Shown piece by piece: positions 26,456 to 49,716 of a DNA stretch of 64,000 nucleotides. Source of the DNA: an uncultured Gammaproteobacteria bacterium. Lineage in GTDB: Bacteria; Pseudomonadota; Gammaproteobacteria; CAWJOP01. A program made the position numbers and the translations under genes. The stretch is from NCBI GenBank assembly GCA_963844535.1, contig CAWJOP010000008.1, positions 196,801 through 260,800 on the forward strand. Reading direction: 5' to 3'. The notes beneath the pieces were generated by a model that had not been told where the DNA came from, ran no database searches, and saw only the letters and a program-made list of their open reading frames with translations. How positions within the stretch are numbered: the first letter of the stretch is position 1; each line of letters begins with the position of its first letter.

Positions 26456-29014
26456 ATGCTTCATAATTTTAATTATTTAAAAAACAATTGTTCGCTTTTT
26501 TTAATAGCCTTATCTTTTTTAGGCTTATTTTCTCAAGCTGCATTTGCCACCACTTATCAATGGAATGTAGTTTCAGGTGATTGGGAAACAGAATCTAATT
26601 GGCTTCCTATGACTCCCCCGGGGCCACCTACCAGCGCAGATACTGCAGAGATTGATAACGGTGGAACTGCTATAGTATTCGCTGGGGATAATTCTTTAGC
26701 ATCAACCGTCAATTTGGGTGTCAACACTACTTCAAATATATTAAATATCGATGCAGGTGGTACGCTCAACATTACTAACAACCTTAACATAGCAAGTACT
26801 GCTACTTCTTCTGGTGCATTAACTCTTATGGGCCAGTTGTTTGTTAATCAAATTCAAGCGGGTATGGGCACTGCGGTTATTAACTTTAACGGCGGAACCT
26901 TACAAGCTGGAACTACTTCTGCATCGAACCTGATCGTAGGCGGATTTGCTTCCAGTAACTTAAACATCGAAAGCGGTGGACTCACCATTGATGACCAGGG
27001 CAATAACATCACTGAAAACCCTTCAGATATGTTTGGATTTAGTGGTCAAGGTAGCTTTACTAAAACGGGCACCGGTGTTGTGACCTTCAACGACCTCACC
27101 AATAATTATCAAGGTGATACGACGGTTGCCGAAGGTACGTTAACCATCAGCGGCGGTACCTTAGGCACCGTGAATGGCAATATCCAATTAGCGACCCTAA
27201 GTAATGCCACCTTAAATATTAATAACGGTGCTGCAGTCACTGCGAATACCGTCACTTTAGGTGACCCAGCTGGAACCCTTAATCTCGGTGGTGGCCCTGG
27301 CTCTCCAGGTACTTTGAGTACCAATCAGTTGATTGCAGGCAATAGCGGAAGTGTGGCTAACTTTAATAATGGCACATTAATCGCACTTTCCAGCAATGCT
27401 AACTTCATCACTGGGTTTAGCAGCGGTAATTTGGTCACCAATAGTCCAGATGGTGTGATTATCGATAGCAATGGCTTTAATATTGGGGTTGCGGATAGTG
27501 GATTTACGGGTAATGGAGGTCTTACAAAAACCGGCGCGGGTACGCTGACATTAAGTGGTACGAATACCTACTCAGGTACTACGACGATTGATGAAGGCAT
27601 CATACAGGCAGGGGCTGCTAATACCCTTAGCCCATTTTCCAATCATGTGGTTGATGCTAATACTGAGCTTAATCTTGCTGGTTTCCCACAAACGATTGCT
27701 GGGTTAACGAATAACGGGTTAGTCTCCTTAGCAGGTACTACGGCTGGAAATCAACTCACGGTGACTGGGAATTTAGGTTCTGGTAACGGCACTTTTGCAT
27801 TCTTAACCAATTTAGGTGCATTAGTGGGTGATCATATGAGCGTCGGAGGAACCAGCGCAGGCAGTTACCTAGTTCAAGTCACCAACCAAGGTAACAATCC
27901 AACGACTCCAGGTCAGTCCTTAGAACTTATTTCTACTACGGACGGTGTGGCTCAATTTGCGTTACAAGGTGGACAAGTTGATGCAGGTATTTTGGTATAT
28001 ACCTTACAAGAAGGCTTAGGCGTACCGGGTACTGAAGACAACTGGTATCTTGTGAATAGTGGCTTAACGCCTACGGGTAAGAACATCGTTGCAACCGCGT
28101 TGACTCCATCGATTTGGGCGACCCAGTTTGATGATGTGTACAAACGTATGGGTGAGTTACGTCAAGGAATCTGCCGATGCTGTGATGGTTGTGCACGCTA
28201 TGGACAAATCAAAAATAATGTATGGGTCCGTAATTACGATGAGCGTATCAACGTTAATAGCGATGTTGCTGGCGATCCGTTCCATGTTTACTTATACGGT
28301 GCTGACGTGGGTATAGACAAAGGCTTTACCACAGCCTGTGGCAATCAAGTGTTTGCTGGTGCGTTCTTAGGATACGGAAGAAGTAGTCCTATCTTCTCAT
28401 CATCATCAGGCAGTATAGATACCAATGCACCTTATGCGGGTGTTTACGGTACTTGGTTGAATCAATGTGGTTGGTATGTAGATGGCGTTGTTAAAGCACA
28501 ACGTTTTTACAATAAATTCAATACATTGACTACATCCGGCAGCAATCTAGATGACACAACCTATAACCAGTGGAGTGTAGGCGCGTCTGCTCAGGCAGGT
28601 AAACGCTTCTGTGCAAAAAATGGCTTCTTTGTTGAACCACAAGCGCAAATTACCTATACACACTTTAATGGAGCAAACTATATAGCTGATGATATTTTCC
28701 CAGTAAGTGTTGGCAACACGGAAATAACTCAAGCTAGAGGCATGTTAATGGTCGGTCGTACATTTAACCAATGTGGAAAATTCTTTGAACCTTACGTAAA
28801 ATTCGGAGAAGCTACACAAAATAGCCATGGTACTAATGTTGATGTTGCCGGAATGCACTTTCGTCCTAACTTAGACGGGGCACGAACTGAAGTAGGTGCA
28901 GGGTTTGCTTATGGATGCAACCACGTACAGTTCCATGCTGATTACAAAGCGGTTAACGGCCCAGATTACAATATTCCATGGGCAATTAACGTAGGCTTCC
29001 GATATATCATGTAA
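26456..29014 (+). CDS. classical (type Va) autotransporter with passenger-associated beta-strand (PATR) repeats and a C-terminal beta-barrel
   Basis: 852 aa with a signal peptide. The Gly/Thr/Asn-rich passenger has repeated TGxGTLTLSG.NTYSGxTTI units (autotransporter-associated beta-strand repeats). The C-terminal ~280 aa have alternating aromatic/hydrophobic residues and end in ..NVGFRYIM. Confidence 0.85.
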   Translation: MLHNFNYLKNNCSLFLIALSFLGLFSQAAFATTYQWNVVSGDWETESNWLPMTPPGPPTSADTAEIDNGGTAIVFAGDNSLASTVNLGVNTTSNILNIDAGGTLNITNNLNIASTATSSGALTLMGQLFVNQIQAGMGTAVINFNGGTLQAGTTSASNLIVGGFASSNLNIESGGLTIDDQGNNITENPSDMFGFSGQGSFTKTGTGVVTFNDLTNNYQGDTTVAEGTLTISGGTLGTVNGNIQLATLSNATLNINNGAAVTANTVTLGDPAGTLNLGGGPGSPGTLSTNQLIAGNSGSVANFNNGTLIALSSNANFITGFSSGNLVTNSPDGVIIDSNGFNIGVADSGFTGNGGLTKTGAGTLTLSGTNTYSGTTTIDEGIIQAGAANTLSPFSNHVVDANTELNLAGFPQTIAGLTNNGLVSLAGTTAGNQLTVTGNLGSGNGTFAFLTNLGALVGDHMSVGGTSAGSYLVQVTNQGNNPTTPGQSLELISTTDGVAQFALQGGQVDAGILVYTLQEGLGVPGTEDNWYLVNSGLTPTGKNIVATALTPSIWATQFDDVYKRMGELRQGICRCCDGCARYGQIKNNVWVRNYDERINVNSDVAGDPFHVYLYGADVGIDKGFTTACGNQVFAGAFLGYGRSSPIFSSSSGSIDTNAPYAGVYGTWLNQCGWYVDGVVKAQRFYNKFNTLTTSGSNLDDTTYNQWSVGASAQAGKRFCAKNGFFVEPQAQITYTHFNGANYIADDIFPVSVGNTEITQARGMLMVGRTFNQCGKFFEPYVKFGEATQNSHGTNVDVAGMHFRPNLDGARTEVGAGFAYGCNHVQFHADYKAVNGPDYNIPWAINVGFRYIM

Positions 29015-34441: not shown

Positions 34442-35257
34442 ATGGCAAAACCTATCTACGACACTATTGGCAAAAGTTATGATAACACGCGTCAAGCTGA
34501 CCCAGAGATTGTTAAAAAATTGCTGGAATTACTTGGCCCAATAGAAAAAGGAAAATATTTAGATCTTGGTTGCGGTTCTGGCAATTATACGGGTGCTTTA
34601 GCTGCAATGGGATTAACCATTGAAGGGGTTGATCTTTCTCTTGAAATGTTAACAAAAGCGAAAACTAAATACCCTAATGTTTTGTTCCATCAAGGTGATG
34701 CAAAGCAATTAGCTTTTCAAGATAATTCATTCAATGGTGCAGTATCTATTTTAGCTACTCATCATATTGGCGATAATTCTAAACTATTTCACCAAGCTTA
34801 TCGCATTATTAAGCAGGGACGACTGGTAATTTTTACTGCCACTCCTGAACAAATGCAGCATTATTGGCTTTGGCATTATTTTCCTAAAATGATGCAAGGT
34901 TCTGCTGCCATTATGACAAGTTTTGACAAATTAAAAGCAACATTAGAACAAGCTGGATTTAGCTCAATTGAAAAATATCCTTTCTTTATCTCCAATCAAC
35001 TACAAGATTGGTTTTTGCATTCTGGTAAATACCGTCCTGAAATATATCTTGATGAAAAAGTACGCGCAGGAATTTCATCATTTCAACTATTTGCTAACTC
35101 AGCTGAATTGACCCAGGGGCTAAAACAACTTAAAGCTGATATTGACTCAGGTGAAATTGATAAAGTCATTGCGCACTATGCAAGCGATGAAAGCGATTAT
35201 TTGTTTATTTCTGCTGAAAAAAGTGTAGTATTTATCGATGGCTTTAGTCTCATGTAA
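34442..35257 (+). CDS. class I SAM-dependent methyltransferase
   Basis: 271 aa with motif I LDLGCGSGNYTGALA and a post-I acidic residue GVDLSLEML. Its TAA stop lies within the terminus of the family C element. Confidence 0.8.
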   Translation: MAKPIYDTIGKSYDNTRQADPEIVKKLLELLGPIEKGKYLDLGCGSGNYTGALAAMGLTIEGVDLSLEMLTKAKTKYPNVLFHQGDAKQLAFQDNSFNGAVSILATHHIGDNSKLFHQAYRIIKQGRLVIFTATPEQMQHYWLWHYFPKMMQGSAAIMTSFDKLKATLEQAGFSSIEKYPFFISNQLQDWFLHSGKYRPEIYLDEKVRAGISSFQLFANSAELTQGLKQLKADIDSGEIDKVIAHYASDESDYLFISAEKSVVFIDGFSLM

Positions 35258-35410
35258 AAGCTTAGTCTCTCCCGTGAGGCCGTCATTGCGAGGCTTGAGT
35301 TTTTTGCAAGCCGAAGCAATCCAGCAAAGAAATTTAAGCATTTTTACTGGATTGCCGCGCGCATCCTGCGCTCGCAATGACGGCCTCACGGGAGAGGCTG
35401 AGCTTTTACA
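35258..35410. repeat. family C palindromic element, most complete copy (~150 bp, ~33-bp terminal inverted repeats)
   Basis: GCTTAGTCTCTCCCGTGAGGCCGTCATTGCGAGG..GCCGAAGCAATCCAGC..GCTGGATTGCCGCGCGCATCCTGCGCTCGCAATGACGGCCTCACGGGAGAGGCTGAGC. It sits between the methyltransferase stop and the EamA gene start. The internal ORFs at 35147..35389 and 35238..35459 are artefacts of the palindrome. Confidence 0.6.
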
Positions 35411-35431
35411 GTCTTATTTGGAAAATTTGTT

Positions 35432-36313
35432 ATGTTGGCTTATCTTTTTCTCTTTTTAGCACAAATCATGGTTGGTATTAGTGTAGTGGGCTCAAAGTAT
35501 TTGATTGCATTCATGCCTGCTATGGTTTTATTAACCGTACGATTTAGTTTAGCAACATTGGTTTTATTCCTTTTACACTATCTGTGTAATGGTCATACCA
35601 GCTCCATTCGCGTCGATCTGGAAAAGTTAAATAAAAAAGATTGGCAATTCATTTTTGCCGAAGCTTTATGTGCCGGTGTGCTATTTAATTTTTTAATGCT
35701 ATTAGGTTTAAATTATACAGATGCTAATGTAGCTGGCATTATCATGAGCGCCTTGCCGGCTCTTATTGCCGTTTTCTCTTTTGCAATTTTGAAAAAAAAA
35801 CTTTCCACTAAAAAATGCTTTGCAATTGCATTAGCTACTCTTGGTTTATTAGTCGTTAGTACCAACGAGTTTTGCCATGCACAGATAAAACACTCCATTT
35901 TAGGCAATTTAATTATTTTTCTATCGTTAATGCCAGAAGCGGCCTACTATATCTTAAGTAAATTACACCCTAATAAATTACCCATTTTTCTAGTCGCTGG
36001 ATTAATGAATGGTATCAATGCGATTTTATTGCTACCTACTTTAGTTTTATATTCAAACTGGCAAATAGCTCATTTTTCGCTGCTACAATGGACAATTTTA
36101 GGGTTGGTAAGTATTGCTTCTGGGTTATTTTATGTTTTTTGGTATGCAGGTTCTCACAAAACAGAAGGTGTCACTGCTTCACTTTCCACTGCTTTGATGC
36201 CTATAGCAACAGTCATTATTGCTTGGGTAACATTAGGAGAAGCAATTAATATGATTCAATTAGCAGGAATGGGGCTAGTGATAGCTTCAATTGTTACTTA
36301 TACCTTTTCATAA
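35432..36313 (+). CDS. EamA/DMT-family drug-metabolite transporter
   Basis: 293 aa with 10 TM helices in two EamA repeats. Confidence 0.8.
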   Translation: MLAYLFLFLAQIMVGISVVGSKYLIAFMPAMVLLTVRFSLATLVLFLLHYLCNGHTSSIRVDLEKLNKKDWQFIFAEALCAGVLFNFLMLLGLNYTDANVAGIIMSALPALIAVFSFAILKKKLSTKKCFAIALATLGLLVVSTNEFCHAQIKHSILGNLIIFLSLMPEAAYYILSKLHPNKLPIFLVAGLMNGINAILLLPTLVLYSNWQIAHFSLLQWTILGLVSIASGLFYVFWYAGSHKTEGVTASLSTALMPIATVIIAWVTLGEAINMIQLAGMGLVIASIVTYTFS

Positions 36314-36699: not shown

Positions 36700-36750
36700 T
36701 TCTTGCCTACGTGCCGCGGCACGTAGGCGGTGAGTACGGGGCCATCGGCG
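36700..36750. repeat. short family A REP-like palindrome (CCTACGTGCCGCGGCACGTAGG) between convergent genes
   Basis: A perfect 22-bp palindrome followed by CGGTGAGTACGGGGCCATCGGCGG. It shares the ACGTGCCGC core with the other family A copies. Confidence 0.4.
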
Positions 36751-36778: not shown

Positions 36779-37201
36779 CTATTCCACTCGTTGATAATAA
36801 TCAGCACCAGTTATATTCGCATCCCAGTTTTTATGCGCGGGATCTTTTGCCTGCATCGCATCTAACCAAAGTGTTGCAAGCTCATCACGATTTGCGCTCA
36901 AATGACCAGTCATCGCAACTACTTGCTTGCAGTGTGGAAAATTAACTGTTATTGCAATGGCATTCCCATTAAAAAAACCACTGATAGGCATTGGCACATT
37001 CACATCAGCCTTGCAATTACCAACGGCCGTGGTAAATGTACCACTTAATGTCCCTGTTTCTTTGGTTTCCGCATGCCAAATTAGTGTTAGCACCGAACCG
37101 CGTTGATTTTTATAAGTAACTGTTTGCTCTGCAGCAGCAAAAGCACAGTGACTCACAAAAAATATGGCAAAAACTAGGAAAATCTTTTTGGTTGTATTCA
37201 T
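36779..37201 (-). CDS. secreted avidin/streptavidin-family protein
   Basis: There is an ATG at 37199-37201 with an AAGGAGA RBS and a signal peptide (MNTTKKIFLVFAIFFVSHCAFAAA). The mature part matches the avidin fold (YKNQRGSVLTL.., GTLSGTFTTAVGN vs streptavidin GALTGTYESAVGN; ..VVAMTGHL.., LATLWLD). The track ORF is 5'-extended to 37258. Confidence 0.55.
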   Translation of the reverse strand: MNTTKKIFLVFAIFFVSHCAFAAAEQTVTYKNQRGSVLTLIWHAETKETGTLSGTFTTAVGNCKADVNVPMPISGFFNGNAIAITVNFPHCKQVVAMTGHLSANRDELATLWLDAMQAKDPAHKNWDANITGADYYQRVE

Positions 37202-37298
37202 AGATATATCTCCTTTATATAAAAAATCGATTCTGTCATTTTTTTCTACATTAATCACTAGGAAAACTCCTAGGTTTTTATAGCAGTTTTCATAATAA

Positions 37299-38501
37299 TC
37301 AGAAATTATTAACTAACTTATCATGCGCTATGTATCTACTCAATAGTGAAAACAAAGCAAATCCTAGTATGACAAATGCTAACAACAAAGAAGTAGCAGA
37401 ATGAAATGCAATAACTAAACAGCTGCTCAATGTGGCAAACAAAAATCGTAAAAAATTAAATAATGCTGCTCCAGCACCAGCATAATGCGGAATCGGTTGC
37501 AATGCTTTAGTCGCACCGGCTGAAATAACTATCGCAATACCAAATTCACAGATTATTTGCGGCATGACTATTGCCAACGCATCAAGTGGATATAGATATG
37601 ACATCACTACCATTATGATTGCACCACTTATCAGACTGATGCTGCCAATAAGATACATGAAATTTATACCAACAAAACATACTAATTTACCATTAACAAA
37701 AGCCCCTAACACATAACCAATCGCTGCTGTTGCAAATATCCAGCCGAATAATTCTGGCGAATAACTCATTAAATTAAGCAATATATAAGGAGCACCACTC
37801 ACATAAGCAAACAACGCACCAAAGGCCAACGCAGCACTTAAAGCATATCCGATATAATTTGGATCTCCCAATAAACATCGATAATCTAACCATAATCGTT
37901 TAAAAAAATTTGTTGAGCTCCCTCGATACTGATTGGTTTCCGGTAGATACCAATAACACCATAACCACAAGATTAGCCCAAACAAAACTAATAGAATAAA
38001 ATCCCATCGCCAAGATAACTGTGCTTGAATATAGCCGCCTATGATTGGAGCGATAATAGGAGATAAGGCAACAACAGCACTCATATAAGCAATGTATTTA
38101 GCCAATTCTTTGCCTGTATACAAATCTCTAAGTATGGCAAACGTCAATATGGCGCTTCCCGCGCCCAATGCCTGTAAACACCTTGCAACAATAAGCATTT
38201 TTATACTGGTAGAAAATGCACAAAGCAGTGTCGCTAGAATATAAATAAAAAGATTTAGCAAACAAACCGGTTTTCGCCCAAAACAATCTGATAAAGATCC
38301 ATAGATAAGTTGAATAATGCCAAAAGTAAAAAAATATCCTGTTAAAGTCAGTTGCACCTGTGTCGTGCTTACATGAAAAAAATTTCCAATCTCACTGAGT
38401 GAAGGTAAATAAATATCAGTTGATAGAATTGGCAGAGCAAGTAGCCAAGTCAGCAATAAGATGATGAAAAATTGGCTTGAATTCCAATTGCACACGTTCA
38501 A
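37299..38501 (-). CDS. MFS transporter, DHA1 (Bcr/CflA-like) drug:H+ antiporter family
   Basis: 400 aa with 12 TM helices and motif A GSLSDCFGRKPV. Confidence 0.8.
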   Translation of the reverse strand: MNVCNWNSSQFFIILLLTWLLALPILSTDIYLPSLSEIGNFFHVSTTQVQLTLTGYFFTFGIIQLIYGSLSDCFGRKPVCLLNLFIYILATLLCAFSTSIKMLIVARCLQALGAGSAILTFAILRDLYTGKELAKYIAYMSAVVALSPIIAPIIGGYIQAQLSWRWDFILLVLFGLILWLWCYWYLPETNQYRGSSTNFFKRLWLDYRCLLGDPNYIGYALSAALAFGALFAYVSGAPYILLNLMSYSPELFGWIFATAAIGYVLGAFVNGKLVCFVGINFMYLIGSISLISGAIIMVVMSYLYPLDALAIVMPQIICEFGIAIVISAGATKALQPIPHYAGAGAALFNFLRFLFATLSSCLVIAFHSATSLLLAFVILGFALFSLLSRYIAHDKLVNNF

Positions 38502-38588
38502 TAAATTTCCTTGAATAATAAGGAAATACTATAGATCTTAAATTAGCAGATTAAGTGCTAGGAAAATTACTAGTACGACAATATACAA

Positions 38589-43558: not shown

Positions 43559-43668
43559 GTTTCTCTCCTGTTAAAATTAGCTAAAAGCACAAGTCTTCGT
43601 ACATATACTCATTACACCCTCAGCTGCTACACTATGGGGAAAAATCAACTAGAATGAACTAGAAATTT

Positions 43669-44517
43669 ATGACCCATTATTCAAGTAAAAAAAGCATAAC
43701 ACCTTACCAGGATATTAATGAAACATTGTCATTCATATCAGAGAGCATTAAAACTATCTTAGGCAAAAATCTGATTGGCGTATATCTATTTGGTTCCTTG
43801 GCTTATGGTGATTTTAACCCAGATAGTAGTGATATTGATTTAGTCACGATTATCAATAACCCACTCAATCATCATGATCTTGAACTGATAAAGCAGCTAC
43901 ATGAGCAAATAAGAACACACGATAAAAAATGGAGTAATCGGTTGGAATGCTCTTACACGCCCATGGAGATGCTGAAAAATATCTTACCCCCCAAAGAGCC
44001 TAGGCCATATTATGGCGAAGGAGTTTTTTATGACGAAGCTCCATACGGCAATGAATGGATCATCAATAACTATTTATTATATGAGTACGCTTTCCCACTT
44101 ATTGGCCCTGGTTTTAAAGAATTGATTAAACCCATTGATATCATTGAAGTACAAAAGGCTTGTATTCGCGATTTATTTCAGGAATGGGAACCAAAAATAA
44201 CAGATTTCAATTGGTTGGATAACAGCCATTATCAATCCTATCTTGTGATAAATTTATGCCGTATTTTATATACGGTTATGTGCACTGCTATTGGTACAAA
44301 GAAAAAATCGGCCCAATGGGCAAAAAATCAATTTGGTTTACCATGGATTAATTTAATCGAAACTGCTGAGAATTGGAGATATGGTAAAGAAATGTCTTTG
44401 CGAAATGAAACCATTGATTTTATTAAATTTGCTATCAGTCAAATTAAACAAACGAGTTTTTATCAAGAAATATATGTTAGAAATAGTAAGAAGAAAAATA
44501 GCCATTTCCCCTTTTAG
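43669..44517 (+). CDS. pol-beta superfamily nucleotidyltransferase with a C-terminal DUF4111-like domain (AadA/ANT(3'')-(9)-like architecture)
   Basis: 282 aa. The N-terminal part has LIGVYLFGSLAYGDFNPDSSDIDLVTI (hGS..D.D). The C-terminal half, W..DNSHYQSYLVINLCRILYTVMCTAIGTKKKSAQWA, resembles the AadA C-terminal helical domain. Confidence 0.55.
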   Translation: MTHYSSKKSITPYQDINETLSFISESIKTILGKNLIGVYLFGSLAYGDFNPDSSDIDLVTIINNPLNHHDLELIKQLHEQIRTHDKKWSNRLECSYTPMEMLKNILPPKEPRPYYGEGVFYDEAPYGNEWIINNYLLYEYAFPLIGPGFKELIKPIDIIEVQKACIRDLFQEWEPKITDFNWLDNSHYQSYLVINLCRILYTVMCTAIGTKKKSAQWAKNQFGLPWINLIETAENWRYGKEMSLRNETIDFIKFAISQIKQTSFYQEIYVRNSKKKNSHFPF

Positions 44518-44601
44518 TCTTTATAAAATTATGCTACATTAATAGTACGCCGTGACTGCGCCGATACTAGCAGGTACGGGTTTCCCGACACGGCGTCGTT
44601 T

Positions 44602-45357
44602 TTACTTCTTTGGCCATCGTATTAATCCAAATCCCTCAATTTTTCCATTCTCGCCTTTTCTAAATGATCCTTTGATCAAGTTAAAATATCTGGCATCTTT
44701 TCTTACAAAATAACGATACACTGCCCCTGCTACCATATCCGCCAGTTGAATTCCTACACTTAAATGTGAAGGTGCAATAAAAACACCTTCAATCAAATTA
44801 CGATAAACTGAGAAATGTTTTTCAGAACCGGTCAAAAGTTTTTGATGTAAATGCCTAAGTTGAGAATCATCTTGAGGTTGCCGATGATCACAAATAATGA
44901 TGCCATTAATTTTACTACCTACTGTTCGGGAAATATCTTGTAAATAGTATTGAAACCGCTCTGTCATTAGCTTGTAGGCATAACAATATAAATCATTATA
45001 AGTTTTTATATAATCAAGCTGATAAGCCGAATGAATATCAATAACTGTGCAAATTAGGCGAATGGATTTAAACTTGGTTAAAAGTTGGTAAATAGCCAGG
45101 CGTAACTCTTCCTTTTGTTCAGCATTCAGATGGGAAAGTGAATGCGGTGCTGCCCCTGATTTTTGCGGTGAAAAGTACCGCCACTTTATTTCTCCCATTA
45201 CTTTATGGTTCGCCTTTAAAATAGCCAGTTCTTTATCAATTTCATGCCAATGGTCTTCTGGAATTATAATGCCCCCTAATGTAAAAAAATCCGCCTCATT
45301 ATTGTTTTTATTTTTTGGCGGAATTGTGCCTGATTCATCAATAAAAAATAATTGCAT
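44602..45357 (-). CDS. DUF3800-family protein
   Basis: 251 aa with the DUF3800 N-terminal signature MQLFFIDESGT and an internal GIQLADMVAGAVYR (Q.AD..A). Partial paralogue copies lie at 50039..50239 and 59735..59790. Confidence 0.65.
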   Translation of the reverse strand: MQLFFIDESGTIPPKNKNNNEADFFTLGGIIIPEDHWHEIDKELAILKANHKVMGEIKWRYFSPQKSGAAPHSLSHLNAEQKEELRLAIYQLLTKFKSIRLICTVIDIHSAYQLDYIKTYNDLYCYAYKLMTERFQYYLQDISRTVGSKINGIIICDHRQPQDDSQLRHLHQKLLTGSEKHFSVYRNLIEGVFIAPSHLSVGIQLADMVAGAVYRYFVRKDARYFNLIKGSFRKGENGKIEGFGLIRWPKK

Positions 45358-45517
45358 ATTATAAAAGCCTTATAATCTAAGTTAGATAATAAAATTAGTG
45401 GGAATTTTAGGACATTTTATAGGCAACTACTATATCTGTGTAATAATAAGTGAATTAAATACTGAAAAAATATCATAAAAGCTTATCTAATATTTAAAAT
45501 CAAACAAGGAGGTTTTA

Positions 45518-46243
45518 ATGAAAAAGTTTGCTCAAAAATGCAAAGGCCTTTGGGATAACTGGGTAAAAGCTTTTTTTATAATATTTCTTGTACTAGCTTT
45601 AATAGGACTCTTAGTTTTTTTCTTTGATAAATTTATACTTAAATCATTTCCTGGATTACATCCTGAGTTTCAAGATTATGATCGAAAATATGCTTCCGGA
45701 TGGTCTAATAATGAAATAGATGCGCTTTTATATTATTTAACTGCCATCGCTACTGTAGCAGTAGCATTTGTAGCATACACACAAATTACCAAACTTCGTG
45801 ATAACAATGAATCTGAATTTTTGTTGCGCATTGACGAAAGATGGACTAGTAAACAGATATTGAAAGCAAGAACTATTATTTATGGACTTTATTTAAAAGC
45901 CCGTAACAATCAGGACTTATCTTCAGAATGTATTCCTGTTCAAGAAGCTAACACAATGGAAGATGCTATTAGAAAGGAAGTTGGGGGAAAAATACTAAAA
46001 ATGTCAAAAGATATAAAAGAAAATGAAAATTTTATGTATCTACTAAATCTTTTAGATTTTATGGAGACAATTAGTTTTTTTCATAATAAAAAAGGGATAA
46101 GCACTAAAAAATTAGAAGCTTTGTTGGGAGAATCGCTTAATTTTCATTACCAAGTTTTTAAACCTTATATTGAATACAAACGAAAACAACCTTATAGCAA
46201 AGACATCTATGAGGAATTAGAAAGCATGATAAAAGATATATAG
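45518..46243 (+). CDS. hypothetical membrane-anchored protein
   Basis: 241 aa with an N-terminal TM helix, a second hydrophobic segment and a cytoplasmic-looking C-terminal domain. No recognised motif. Confidence 0.4.
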   Translation: MKKFAQKCKGLWDNWVKAFFIIFLVLALIGLLVFFFDKFILKSFPGLHPEFQDYDRKYASGWSNNEIDALLYYLTAIATVAVAFVAYTQITKLRDNNESEFLLRIDERWTSKQILKARTIIYGLYLKARNNQDLSSECIPVQEANTMEDAIRKEVGGKILKMSKDIKENENFMYLLNLLDFMETISFFHNKKGISTKKLEALLGESLNFHYQVFKPYIEYKRKQPYSKDIYEELESMIKDI

Positions 46244-46320
46244 AGAGGATAAAAATAACTCCGGATATTTCTTTAACTACCCGCATTATGGCAGTAAAAG
46301 ACTAAGAAAAAGTGGTTTAG

Positions 46321-46342
46321 CTGTGGCCGAACCTGGAATCGA
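46321..46342 (-). other. 22-bp remnant of a tRNA-Phe 3' end (T-arm plus acceptor); putative island attachment-site repeat
   Basis: TGTGGCCGAACCTGGAATCGAA matches 19/22 to the longer tRNA-Phe 3' fragment at 57903..57947 (GGTGGCCAGACCTGGAATCGAA). Confidence 0.4.
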
Positions 46343-46611
46343 ATTTAATGAGCGTTAAAAACAATCTGATGAAATGGTCTTTTGCTTGCTGATTAACCGG
46401 ACAAAAAACCGGACATTTTTTCTCAAAAATATTTCTTAATTTTTCAAAAAACCCTGATAAAACAAGCCAATGAATACTAAAAAACCGGGCAAAAAAATAG
46501 GACATTTTATCGGTCATAGATAGAAACGACCTCGACGCACCTACCGCCTGGTCGTGTGCAGAAACCAATGCCAATTGTTCCTGCCTCAAGCGGTGTAAAT
46601 TCAAAAAATTA

Positions 46612-46662
46612 TATTTTATGTGCAATTAATTCCTATAAAAGGAACTAATTGCACATAAAATA
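46612..46662 (-). terminator. rho-independent terminator downstream of the adhesin gene
   Basis: ATGTGCAATTAATTCCT-ATAAA-AGGAACTAATTGCACAT is a 17-bp stem with one mismatch, followed on the minus strand by a T-rich run. Confidence 0.5.
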
Positions 46663-46700
46663 TAATTAATCCATGCAAATATTATAAATAAGTGCAATCT

Positions 46701-48845
46701 TCAAAAATCATCCCGCCTAATGCTATTTTCAGAAAATAAATTAACACTAATGCCATCAGCAGGTGATGCGGCGAACAAACCAAATCCATCGCCGTTACCA
46801 CCAGTTAATGTTACTTGGTTAAATACAATGGAATCTAATTTAATAAAACTTGGATGATTAGCATTCCGCTGCCCTAGGAAAAGCCCCCTTGAGTTCTCGC
46901 TGGAGTTTTCTAAAACGATTTGATTGCTATTTATTTTTTTCCCAACGATGTTGCCACCATCAGAAATAATATCAATACCCACACTGAGATTATTATTTAC
47001 ATTATTCATATCGATGTTTATAACATTATTAATAATATTGCCGATGTTGATAGTGGAGTCTGATTCACTCACAAAATCAATGCCTGTGGCGATACGGGTA
47101 AGTTCATCGATTGAATCACTACCAGTGATTTTAATTTCATTACCCGAAATTTTAGCAACACTCAAATTTCCAGATAAATTGGCGTCGAAATGCATGCCAA
47201 TCGAACTGGTGTCGATGCTATTTTCTTTAATATTTTCTACACCCATTGTTCCGCCAGTTACCAAGAAGTCCAACCCTGGAGATTTCTTATCGTTTGTAGA
47301 AACAGAATTCATACTAATATTTTTAACTGTCATACTTCCATGGGAAGCACTAAAAAACATACCTGAGCTGTGAGCGCTTTGTGTTTCGATCATATTGTCT
47401 GAAATTTCACCTACCTTAAGTTGCCCACCATTGTTAGCGCTAAAAGATAACGCGCTGCCTGAATTAATATTAAAAATACTATCGGTAATATGATCAATGG
47501 TAGCGGTATTGTTTTTACCACTTACTTCAATTTTCAGATTACCATTGGTAAGTATGCGTTCAAGATTGAGCGTACCCATACTGCCATCCTCAGACCGATG
47601 AAAAATTGCTAGTGGTGCAGTTTTATCAACTGAAAGGTTTAAATCACGAATGGTGATGTTAGAGTTTTCTCCTTTAATTTTTAATAACCCATGATCTCCA
47701 GGGTTGTTGATAGGTTTACCGATTAATTCACCGCCTTGAGTAACTGTAATATTAATAATTTTTTTATCTCGAACAAATTGATAAGTATTGCCAGTTAGAT
47801 AAAGGTTGCGATTAATCATTGCATCACCAACGCCTTTAATTTGCCCATGTACAGCAATGACATCCGCTTTATCATCAGCAAGCGCTTGATTAAAATTACC
47901 GAGCGTATCAACGTCACGAATATTCGCCGGTAAATTAACGTTTTGTGCATTGCTTTGCGTGATTACATCCACGTCACGGCGAATGCGATCAACCATATGT
48001 CGTTCAACACCTTGTAGATTTAAATTAGCGTTGCCATTACCCCAACTCATTCCTATTGTTAAGCCGCCATAATAATTTATGCCCCTAACTGCATCGTTTG
48101 TCACTAATCCTTCTACAGCTACGCGGTCAAATAATCCTAAGATTTTATGATTAGGTTCGGCATAAAACACGTATTCAGCTCTGGCTTTGGGCCCTGCTAA
48201 TGTTTTTGTATTTGCCTCATGAAAATAATAACCGCCCCCATAAACAGTTAAACCACCTATTAATGTGCGCCCTATTTCAGCGTCTGCTCCTGGTAAGGCG
48301 CTTTCAGTAGTTTCAGTAAAACCAATATTACGGTAACCACCATTTTCGCGGAAGGAAAAAGTTTTTAAATCAGGCGCAGAATATTGATGACAACCATAAG
48401 GACAATACATGTTAGCTCCTAAAAACCAGTCCTGTTGCCAAGCTTCTATTCCAACATTGATCTGATTAAAAGAATCACCCGTAGTAGTTTTTAAATGATC
48501 AATTCCCCCATATAAACCTATTAAATTGGTATGATTAGGATTTAAACGCCGATACCCTAACGCTAAGCTACCTTCCCATGGCGTGCCAGATTTATCGAGT
48601 AATCGTATACTTGAAAAAAGTAATTGATCAGAGGTTGCAAAAAGAGGCGATAGCAACGTATTTTCGCCTGCTAAGTGCGGGCCATTTTTAAAGGCGTATC
48701 CGCCTAAATACCATTGAGGATAATAAGTAATGGAATTAATCTCAAAAGCATTTTGGTTTTTTTGCTGCGCATGAGCACTCATGCTGATTAAGAGTAAGGT
48801 AAGGTAGCTTATTAGCTGCAACAAGAATTTTTTTAGTTGATACAT
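46701..48845 (-). CDS. putative outer-membrane adhesin: N-terminal beta-barrel-like domain plus a C-terminal parallel beta-helix repeat domain (inverse-autotransporter-like)
   Basis: 714 aa with a signal peptide. The first ~300 aa are rich in Gly/aromatic alternating beta-strand segments (LALGYRRL, IGLYGGIDHL, INVGIEAWQQDWFLGANMY). The rest has pectin-lyase-like repeats (NxIxxTGSDS.., ISDGGNIVGKKINSNQIVLENSSEN). Confidence 0.45.
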   Translation of the reverse strand: MYQLKKFLLQLISYLTLLLISMSAHAQQKNQNAFEINSITYYPQWYLGGYAFKNGPHLAGENTLLSPLFATSDQLLFSSIRLLDKSGTPWEGSLALGYRRLNPNHTNLIGLYGGIDHLKTTTGDSFNQINVGIEAWQQDWFLGANMYCPYGCHQYSAPDLKTFSFRENGGYRNIGFTETTESALPGADAEIGRTLIGGLTVYGGGYYFHEANTKTLAGPKARAEYVFYAEPNHKILGLFDRVAVEGLVTNDAVRGINYYGGLTIGMSWGNGNANLNLQGVERHMVDRIRRDVDVITQSNAQNVNLPANIRDVDTLGNFNQALADDKADVIAVHGQIKGVGDAMINRNLYLTGNTYQFVRDKKIINITVTQGGELIGKPINNPGDHGLLKIKGENSNITIRDLNLSVDKTAPLAIFHRSEDGSMGTLNLERILTNGNLKIEVSGKNNTATIDHITDSIFNINSGSALSFSANNGGQLKVGEISDNMIETQSAHSSGMFFSASHGSMTVKNISMNSVSTNDKKSPGLDFLVTGGTMGVENIKENSIDTSSIGMHFDANLSGNLSVAKISGNEIKITGSDSIDELTRIATGIDFVSESDSTINIGNIINNVINIDMNNVNNNLSVGIDIISDGGNIVGKKINSNQIVLENSSENSRGLFLGQRNANHPSFIKLDSIVFNQVTLTGGNGDGFGLFAASPADGISVNLFSENSIRRDDF

Positions 48846-49010
48846 AGGGAAATTTCTCGCAAATACATTAGTTAATGCGTTTGCTTCCTTGTATCACGCG
48901 TAAATAACCTTACATAATAAAAACGTCTTTACGCAATAATGTATCGTTGAATGTAGTAGGATTTACGTAACTCATGTTATACAGCTGATGCTATTTTTAG
49001 CATTGAACAA

Positions 49011-49058
49011 CTCCGCTGCCTACGTGCCGCTGCCACGACTTGTTTGCGGCATCTACAG
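49011..49058. repeat. family A REP-like half element
   Basis: CTCCGCTGCCTACGTGCCGCTGCCACGACTTGTTTGCGGCATCTACAG is the reverse-complement match to the right half of the 22150 element. Confidence 0.45.
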
Positions 49059-49074
49059 TTAAACAAAGTAAAAT

Positions 49075-49710
49075 TCATTTTGATTTTACATCAAGCATAT
49101 CAATAGCTTTATTTAGCCATGTTGCTGTTTCAGAATGTTTATGTTTGATATTTTTTAAAGTCATATAATCTTCTAATACCAAGGAAGCTGCTTGACGATT
49201 TCTCCAGTTGGCAACATACACTTTGGCTAATTCGGTGCTTTGTATGATTAATACATTTTCTGCATTTCGTGTTTGTGCTGCTTTGCTAAAGTTAAAGCTG
49301 CCTGAAATAACTTTCTGGTTATCTACAATTATGATTTTGTTGTGGGCAATACTCACTTTATTATCAATCCACACCGGAATCCCCTGATGCTTGAACAGAA
49401 CTGCTGAAGCATTAGGTTTTTGAGTATATTGTGTTTTATCGAGGATTATGCGCACATCAACACCACGGCGTTTTGCCGCAATTACCGCCTCAGAAATTGG
49501 CAATGAGGTAAATTGATAGGCTTGAATCCAAAGTGTTTTTTGCGCATGGTGGATAGCATCTACAATTTTTTCAGTACAATTTCCGCCAGGGGTGAAACAA
49601 TACTCTATACTGCCTTTTATACTATTACTTGAAAAAGCAGCAGGGGAAAGTAAGCAACATACAATTATAAAAATGCTATATTTTTTAGGTAGAAAATTTG
49701 TTTGAATCAT
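49075..49710 (-). CDS. secreted phospholipase D-superfamily nuclease (Nuc-like, single HKD motif)
   Basis: 211 aa with a signal peptide and one HKD motif, AHNKIIIVDNQKVISGSFNFSKAAQTRNAEN (H.K....D......GS.N). Confidence 0.75.
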   Translation of the reverse strand: MIQTNFLPKKYSIFIIVCCLLSPAAFSSNSIKGSIEYCFTPGGNCTEKIVDAIHHAQKTLWIQAYQFTSLPISEAVIAAKRRGVDVRIILDKTQYTQKPNASAVLFKHQGIPVWIDNKVSIAHNKIIIVDNQKVISGSFNFSKAAQTRNAENVLIIQSTELAKVYVANWRNRQAASLVLEDYMTLKNIKHKHSETATWLNKAIDMLDVKSK

Positions 49711-49716
49711 TTTATT

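Follow-up and report, generated by a model that had tools for sequence, protein, structure and literature searches.

An avidin-family protein with an altered binding pocket and a putative LuxR-type regulator in an uncultured gammaproteobacterium

The window analyzed here is a stretch of 64,000 nucleotides (nt; 64 kb) of contig CAWJOP010000008.1, from an uncultured gammaproteobacterium. Its minus strand carries an intact open reading frame (ORF) of 140 codons plus a stop codon, which encodes a precursor protein of the avidin family. The immediate neighbors are a convergent gene for a CsaA-like protein with a tRNA-binding domain, an EamA transporter gene, a gene for a Bcr/CflA-type transporter of the major facilitator superfamily (MFS), and a gene in which a methyltransferase-like domain is joined to a LuxR-type DNA-binding domain. 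The analysis concerns the avidin-family protein, its pocket and its presumed regulation; coordinates and aligned residues are collected in Table 1.

Membership of the avidin family was established at the level of sequence profiles. Pfam PF01382 (Avidin), whose gathering score is 24 bits, matches the protein at 40.4 bits (E = 4.4e-10) over profile positions 5-115 of 116, and the relatives found by a word-indexed search all carry the same domain. A phmmer search against the sequences in the PDB placed bradavidin II (bradavidin 2) at the top (E 3.3e-5), followed by bradavidin, rhizavidin and wilavidin, and a profile made from the family recovers chains of avidin and streptavidin at values between 1e-10 and 1e-6. 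The AlphaFold2 model, for which 75 relatives were used, has eight strands and a mean predicted local distance difference test (pLDDT) score of 90.7. When the model was compared with the PDB by Foldseek, the best 50 matches were all bacterial avidins with a probability of 1.00, the first being core-bradavidin (4BBO) with a target TM-score of 0.81-0.82. As modeled, the mature protein is an eight-stranded antiparallel beta-barrel of the avidin type. The score against the NCBIfam streptavidin equivalog NF047623 is 21.8 bits, far under its cut-off of 300, which makes the protein a member of the avidin family and not a streptavidin orthologue. The preliminary description, made from the sequence alone, had recognized a secreted avidin-family protein and had proposed a profile search and a structure prediction; both led to avidin. 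The sequence likenesses that it had pointed out also hold: the biotin-pocket segment GTLSGTFTTAVGN spans residues 50-62 and aligns with GALTGTYESAVGN of streptavidin, the N..GS motif is N32..G35-S36, and the tryptophans of the C-terminal region, W112 and W126, are the aligned counterparts of W108 and W120 in streptavidin.

Table 1. Features of the avidin locus and pocket residues of the encoded protein (window positions on the forward strand, unless another locus or a residue is named)
Feature	Position	Strand	Basis or remark
Avidin-family gene, 140-aa precursor plus stop codon	36779-37201	-	ORF, translation, Pfam PF01382, AlphaFold2 model, Foldseek, dN/dS
Predicted signal peptide, residues 1-22 (MNTTKK / IFLVFAIFFV / SHCAFA)	37136-37201	-	rule-based sequence reading
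Mature beta-barrel domain, residues 23-140	36782-37135	-	alignments to streptavidin, avidin, bradavidin, bradavidin II and rhizavidin; conservation in 124 members
GGAG ribosome-binding site, 8 nt before ATG	37210-37213	-	sequence reading; AGGAG-spacer-ATG likewise in related loci
Palindromic box of 16 bp, CTAGGAGTTTTCCTAG, 56 nt upstream of the avidin ATG	37258-37273		presumed operator
Second copy of the box, CTAGTAATTTTCCTAG, between regulator and MFS genes	38558-38573		upstream of the MFS gene
Bcr/CflA-family MFS transporter gene, between regulator and avidin genes	37299-38501	-	Pfam MFS_1; TIGR00710
Putative regulator, class-I methyltransferase-like domain plus C-terminal LuxR/GerE helix-turn-helix	38589-39629	-	Pfam Methyltransf_25/_11 plus GerE
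Fused regulator in related loci	L028:2516-3538; L003:6916-7914; L010:8931-9932; L016:1653-2675; L021:4875-5894
GNAT gene downstream of avidin	L009:6295-6762; L013:4426-4893; L028:4034-4498		three otherwise different loci
Aligned with streptavidin N23	N32
Aligned with streptavidin L25	R34
Aligned with streptavidin S27	S36
Aligned with streptavidin Y43	F56		Phe in 122/124
Aligned with streptavidin S45	T58		Thr or Ser in 124/124
Aligned with streptavidin V47-G48-N49	V60-G61-N62
Aligned with streptavidin W79	F88
Aligned with streptavidin S88	Q93		Gln in 97/124
Aligned with streptavidin T90	V95		Val or Ile in 118/124
Aligned with streptavidin W92	M97		Met in 116/124
Aligned with streptavidin W108	W112		Trp in 122/124
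Aligned with streptavidin L110	D114		Asp in 95/124
Aligned with streptavidin W120	W126		Trp in 121/124
Aligned with streptavidin D128	D134		Asp in 123/124

The reading frame is best started at the ATG at 37201, because the GGAG sequence precedes this codon and the closest homologues (P0002-P0004, 140 amino acids (aa)) share the same start. A GTG start at 37258, which is the form given in the ORF list and in database entry P0001 (159 aa), is unlikely by comparison. The N-terminus of the precursor contains two lysines, a ten-residue hydrophobic core and the sequence AFA followed by AA; read by rule from these letters, it is a standard type I signal peptide with predicted cleavage after AFA. Cleavage at or near this site would leave a mature protein of about 116-118 aa, in keeping with the earlier figure of ~120. 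The same stretch appears as a low-confidence helix in the AlphaFold model, and a basic and hydrophobic N-terminus is found in 116 of 120 homologues. A lipoprotein was considered and rejected: the sequence VSHC is no lipobox and Cys19 is not conserved among the homologues. The ratio of nonsynonymous to synonymous substitution rates (dN/dS) against the two closest orthologues, 84% and 76% identical, is 0.06-0.07, with dS close to saturation; the avidin gene is therefore under purifying selection.

The binding pocket was mapped from an alignment with streptavidin, avidin, bradavidin, bradavidin II and rhizavidin, with which other alignments agree except in the short L5,6 loop, and its conservation was counted across 124 members of the clade to which the protein belongs. 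Each of N32, S36, V60, W112, W126, D134 and two cysteines is kept in at least 97% of these members. In the triad that holds the ureido oxygen of biotin in streptavidin (Asn23/Ser27/Tyr43), N32 and S36 are kept and the third residue is F56; the partners of the ureido nitrogens (Ser45/Thr35 and Asp128/Asn118) are matched by T58 and D134. The spacing from W126 to D134 is eight residues, as it is between W120 and D128 of streptavidin and between W99 and D107 of bradavidin. The strand beta6 does not carry the motif S-x-T-x-[W/F] and reads Q93-V94-V95-A96-M97 instead. Q93 and D114 occur together in 95 of the 97 members with Gln, and D114 is never found without Q93. Covariation of K64 and D114, as a salt bridge might produce, was looked for and gave a weak signal. 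As judged from these alignments, the half of the pocket that would recognize the ureido ring is canonical, while the side facing the thiophene sulfur and the valerate tail appears to have been rebuilt and then fixed.

The preliminary description had also noted that the pocket differs, naming the Phe at the Tyr43 position as an example and drawing from it that ligand specificity may differ. The Phe is there and the pocket is altered, but the true changes lie on beta6 and beta7 (Q93, V95, M97, D114). The replacement of Tyr43 by Phe is not diagnostic, because bradavidin II, which binds biotin (complex structure 4GGZ), also has Phe at this position; by this precedent F56 is compatible with biotin binding. 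F46 of agroavidin, for which a wild-type biotin complex is available (8AN6), would map by offset onto the corresponding Tyr of rhizavidin, as judged from alignment ranges. Phe is furthermore the commonest residue at the Tyr43 position in every score band except the most distant, that of 0-50 bits, in which Tyr leads (Tyr 13 vs Phe 9) and Phe is still common.

The two cysteines, C63 and C91, are invariant (124/124) and correspond in the alignment to the paired cysteines of rhizavidin and bradavidin II. They presumably form a disulfide between loops L3,4 and L5,6; the role of such a bridge in disulfide-stapled bacterial avidins has been described (PMC5398887). Among the avidins of solved structure, an L3,4-L5,6 disulfide together with a tetramer-type Trp is unique to bradavidin (PMC5398887).

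The avidin superfamily is rare and the clade of the window protein is compact. When 1.84 billion cluster representatives were searched exhaustively with the profile, no more than 366 clusters matched (23 below 1e-30), which bears out the earlier remark that bacterial avidins are sporadic. The clade comprises at least 124 sequences, nearly all from metagenome-assembled genomes (MAGs) and metagenomes. Among the 101 relatives found by the word-indexed search, the first 99 are 45-84% identical and come almost without exception from metagenomes or gammaproteobacterial MAGs; the next matches drop to 39% and include an "avidin/streptavidin family protein" of Legionella erythra. Legionella ranks with the genera in which putative avidins are most frequent, and its group of avidins has been named "Legavidins" (Laitinen et al. 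2021, PMC8033661). Identity to five Legionella sequences from the supplement of that survey is 31-36%, rising to 38.5% for the L. erythra protein, and in a neighbor-joining tree, drawn without bootstrap, the clade forms a separate sister group to the Legavidins. The motifs of the clade were not found in the sequence file of the 2021 survey (PMC8033661). On this sequence comparison, the clade is an uncharacterized avidin branch with an altered pocket that lies outside that survey.

The same relationship bears on the host. An avidin had been called unusual in an intracellular genome of Legionellales type, which is mistaken in view of the sister-group relation to the Legavidins of Legionella. The label "Legionellales-type" itself is plausible, because the nearest named avidin relatives sit in Legionella. 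The MurA protein encoded in the window is closest to those of Gammaproteobacteria MAGs (at least 71% identity), and the best 120 matches include no cultured genus. The window has a G+C content of 37%; Rfam found no rRNA or tRNA genes in its 64 kb, and NCBIfam found no Legionella-type effector families among its orphan ORFs.

About 24 distinct related loci (L numbers) from GTDB genomes, metagenome contigs and a contig index were compared; their flanks are mostly unrelated, and four features recur. A methyltransferase-like/LuxR gene lies upstream of the avidin gene on the same strand in seven loci (the window, L009, L028, L003, L010, L016 and L021), and adjoins it directly in all of these except the window and L009. 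The GerE domain of the regulator in the window is matched with E 2.9e-14. The S-adenosylmethionine motif I, usually GxGxG, reads GCR[Q/E]G in six fused regulators, whereas an unfused paralogue (L007:5025-5882) keeps GSGDG; this paralogue and the true BioC both show GSGxG. On account of the altered motif I, the methyltransferase-like domain of the fused protein may act as a ligand sensor and not as an enzyme. Derivation of this domain from the biotin-synthesis methyltransferase BioC was rejected. It scores 73 bits against a BioC cut-off of 185, an unrelated methyltransferase at 34442-35257 scores 68 bits on the same profile, and in a BLAST comparison with the true BioC of L012 the E value is 0.058; the resemblance is generic. 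Small regulators composed of PAS and GerE domains were also seen near avidin genes (L006:5848-6423 and L003:5237-5971). The one in L006 lies directly upstream of the avidin gene, and the palindromic box described below was not found at that locus.

Three other kinds of neighbor were seen. The MFS protein of the window scores 279.8 bits on NCBIfam TIGR00710 (cut-off 200.9), and such a Bcr/CflA gene adjoins the avidin gene in three loci: it stands between regulator and avidin in the window and in L009, and follows avidin immediately in L016. A gene for a GNAT acetyltransferase of ~155 aa lies directly downstream of avidin, 5-6 nt away or overlapping, in L009, L013 and L028; the window lacks it. 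Finally, in one lineage (L012/L024) a bioB-bioF-bioH-bioC-bioD cluster precedes the avidin gene, a 59%-identical orthologue of the window protein, with a gap of 10 nt after bioD and on the same strand. The bioB, bioF, bioC and bioD genes of this lineage score above their NCBIfam cut-offs, and rpsU-yqeY-dnaG follows the bio cluster and avidin gene (L012:1-4420, L024:1618-6408). It is the only locus directly linked to biotin synthesis.

Within 140 nt upstream of the avidin genes lies a conserved palindromic box of 16 bp with the consensus CTAG[G/T]A-NTTN-TCC[C/T][A/G]G. It stands 41-64 nt before the avidin start in nine distinct loci, namely all seven with an adjacent regulator plus L014 and L004, which lack one. 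The window contains two matches against 0.07 expected, one before the MFS gene and one before the avidin gene, and the same two-box layout is found in L009. When 160-nt windows were drawn at random from the loci, 0.8% of the trials gave three or fewer mismatches to the box. A -10-like hexamer, read by eye, follows 23-28 nt after the box in the window, L010, L003 and L004; this spacing would center the box near -42.5, a position typical of LuxR-type activators. The box is presumed to be the operator of the LuxR-type regulator. A terminator scan had flagged the box on the plus strand as an intrinsic terminator; this was rejected because no plus-strand gene lies there, because conservation extends to the sequence of the box and not to its pairing alone, and because the box also precedes avidin genes without an upstream gene on the same strand (L014, L004). 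A different palindrome, perfect, GC-rich and 22 nt long (CCTACGTGCCGCGGCACGTAGG), lies at 36706-36727 between the convergent CsaA-like and avidin genes. It occurs once in the window and forms a hairpin of 10 bp that lacks a U-run; it may serve as a terminator in both directions.

Taken together, the protein is rather probably an exported, disulfide-stabilized avidin whose ligand is biotin or a closely related vitamer and which is controlled by a dedicated LuxR-type regulator, here in company with an MFS transporter. A protein of ~117 aa would be exported by the Sec pathway, its signal peptide cleaved, and would fold into the eight-stranded barrel pinned by the Cys63-Cys91 disulfide. N32, S36, T58 and D134 would grip the ureido ring of biotin, and two of the aromatic walls, W112 and W126, are kept; W126 takes the position that is donated by the neighboring subunit in tetrameric avidins, and may be shared in the same way here. 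Binding of biotin or a vitamer is expected because the ureido-gripping residues and the two aromatic walls are kept. Tight binding in the periplasm or outside the cell would then capture the vitamin or withhold it from others. In this genome, the regulator, the MFS transporter and, last, the avidin would make up a three-gene module. Since the one palindrome precedes both the MFS and the avidin gene, avidin expression is probably controlled by the methyltransferase-like/LuxR regulator and not constitutive.

Several points weigh against biotin as the ligand or against the physiology proposed. Of the polar contacts made by streptavidin, three are missing or altered here (Y43 to F56, S88 to Q93, T90 to V95), and a charged Asp (D114) stands at the L110 position, which we take to line the pocket in known avidins. 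The link to the biotin operon comes from a single lineage, and the MFS efflux and GNAT neighbors fit a detoxification module at least equally well. All characterized bacterial avidins have Trp at the W92 position (PMC5398887), where the window protein has Met. Putative avidins, moreover, cannot be judged for function without experiments (PMC8033661).

The main alternative is that the avidin fold serves another ligand, a possible reading if a doubtful one. The remodeled end of the pocket (Q93, V95, M97, D114, R34) would bind a biotin-like antimetabolite or another small molecule, and the protein would belong to an inducible capture-and-efflux or detoxification module made up of regulator, MFS exporter, avidin and sometimes GNAT, comparable to the capture of antibiotics by secreted bacterial lipocalins. 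The changes on beta6 and beta7 are conserved in the clade (Table 1), and the co-occurrence of Q93 and D114 points in the same direction, but the latter may reflect mere shared descent, and each single change is conservative or has a precedent (Phe in bradavidin II; Phe for W79 in bradavidin). The Bcr/CflA-type MFS gene, with the box common to the window and L009, the GNAT gene directly downstream of avidin and a dedicated, ligand-sensor-like regulator would suit such a module, yet the MFS and GNAT neighbors each occur in just three of the ~24 loci. Adjacency to a bio operon would suit defense against inhibitors of biotin synthesis as well. Against this alternative, the ureido-recognizing residues are kept as in proven biotin binders. 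In its fuller form, this alternative makes the avidin the capture part of an inducible small-molecule response, in which the sensor-LuxR regulator would switch on, through the 16-bp box, both the MFS exporter and a periplasmic avidin that binds a ligand other than free biotin, for example a biotin antimetabolite or vitamer. This is rather unlikely; if true, avidins would be seen in a new physiological role, with a regulatory circuit described for one of them for the first time.

The biotin operon in L012/L024 suggests a variant in which biotin is indeed the ligand and the cell binds it for its own use, a periplasmic protein retaining or scavenging biotin or a vitamer when it is scarce rather than starving competitors or a host. 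Apparent co-transcription with bioBFHCD and Sec export with no obvious further secretion signal are consistent with it, and the lost polar contacts could lower the affinity enough for release. Known avidins, on the other hand, release biotin very slowly. Neither a BioY- nor a YigM-type biotin transporter is a conserved neighbor, and the EamA gene at 35432-36313, tried as a YigM-like biotin carrier, has generic matches only and is not conserved near other avidin genes. The bio link comes from one lineage. Own use is unlikely. Very unlikely is an avidin fold that binds no small ligand and has a structural or other role like the avidin-like domains of fibropellins, which do not bind biotin: a handful of changes in the pocket is enough to abolish binding (PMC8033661) and five pocket positions differ here, but the loss of ligand binding is opposed by the conservation of the pocket columns, which ranks with the highest in the family (94% or more for many of them), by the invariance of the Cys pair whose disulfide closes L3,4 over the ligand in other avidins, and by strong purifying selection.

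Further features were noted elsewhere in the window. From ~43600 to 63300 the G+C content is lower (0.33-0.36) and there are genes that resemble defense or mobile functions, among them an AadA-like nucleotidyltransferase, DUF3800, DUF4760, a PLD/NucT-like nuclease, a YhcG PDDEXK nuclease, a pair of HEPN and nucleotidyltransferase genes and a weak GapS1-like match, together with large ORFs without a family match. Large ORFs that matched nothing in Pfam or NCBIfam at the thresholds used lie at 18706-21042, 46701-48845 and 55555-57282 (778, 714 and 575 aa). An autotransporter with a pertactin-like passenger and PATR repeats (26456-29014) adjoins genes for an amino-acid permease and a DsbD-like thiol-disulfide protein. 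Between the methyltransferase and EamA genes, at 35260-35430, ORFs overlap on both strands and encode similar peptide fragments (…RNDGLTGE…), pointing to an inverted repeat or to some small repetitive element.

Few proteins are used in biotechnology as widely as the avidins, whose part in the life of bacteria is, by an explicit statement of the 2021 survey, yet to be settled (PMC8033661). New here are the upstream regulator in seven of the ~24 loci, the 16-bp palindrome in nine loci, and the avidin gene placed after bioBFHCD in one lineage. The pocket is naturally varied: five of its contact positions hold Phe, Gln, Val, Met and Asp, and the ureido core is kept. This variation may alter affinity, reversibility or specificity. 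A conserved regulator with a presumed operator makes the timing of avidin production in bacteria approachable by reporter-gene work, and an avidin at the end of a biotin-synthesis operon links the family, through its genomic context, with the physiology of biotin. Should the ligand be ordinary biotin, the protein would be a further regulated member of the family and a modest addition to its catalogue.

The nearest named relatives of the window protein are the Legavidins of Legionella, matched at 31-38% identity (E 1e-18 to 1e-26; PMC8033661). Both groups have a signal peptide, an N-x-R-G-S turn, an F-T-T-A-V strand with Phe at the Tyr43 position, and two Cys. The Legavidins are without Trp at the W108 and W120 positions (TISIL... 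and GPGARFIGHD), whereas the window clade keeps both. The legavidin locus of L. erythra has no regulator, no box and none of the four recurring neighborhood features.

Bradavidin II (PDB 4GGR/4GGT/4GGZ), the best sequence match in the PDB, shares with the window protein the Phe at the Tyr43 position, the same Cys pair, and N-E-R-G-S where the window protein has N-Q-R-G-S; in beta6, C-N-S-F-T-R-W contrasts with C-K-Q-V-V-A-M. The Trp in L7,8 has been marked as a feature of tetrameric avidins only, and the oligomeric state of bradavidin II is dynamic (PMC5398887). Bradavidin of Bradyrhizobium diazoefficiens (PDB 2Y32, 4BBO), the best structural match, is alike in the L3,4-L5,6 disulfide combined with a tetramer-type Trp in L7,8, in the Phe at W79 and in the short L5,6 loop. 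The position of its L3,4 Cys differs, identity is ~32% over 88 residues, and bradavidin keeps Tyr, Ser, Thr and Trp at the positions of Y43, S88, T90 and W92, which are F, Q, V and M in the window protein. With streptavidin and chicken avidin, the identity is only 23-24%. What is common to all three is the fold, the ureido-binding residues (N, S, S/T, D/N) and the equivalents of W108 and W120; the TAVGN segment of the window protein resembles SAVGN of streptavidin. Relative to streptavidin, the window protein combines a presumably disulfide-stapled L3,4 loop with the substitutions Y43F, S88Q, T90V, W92M and L110D.

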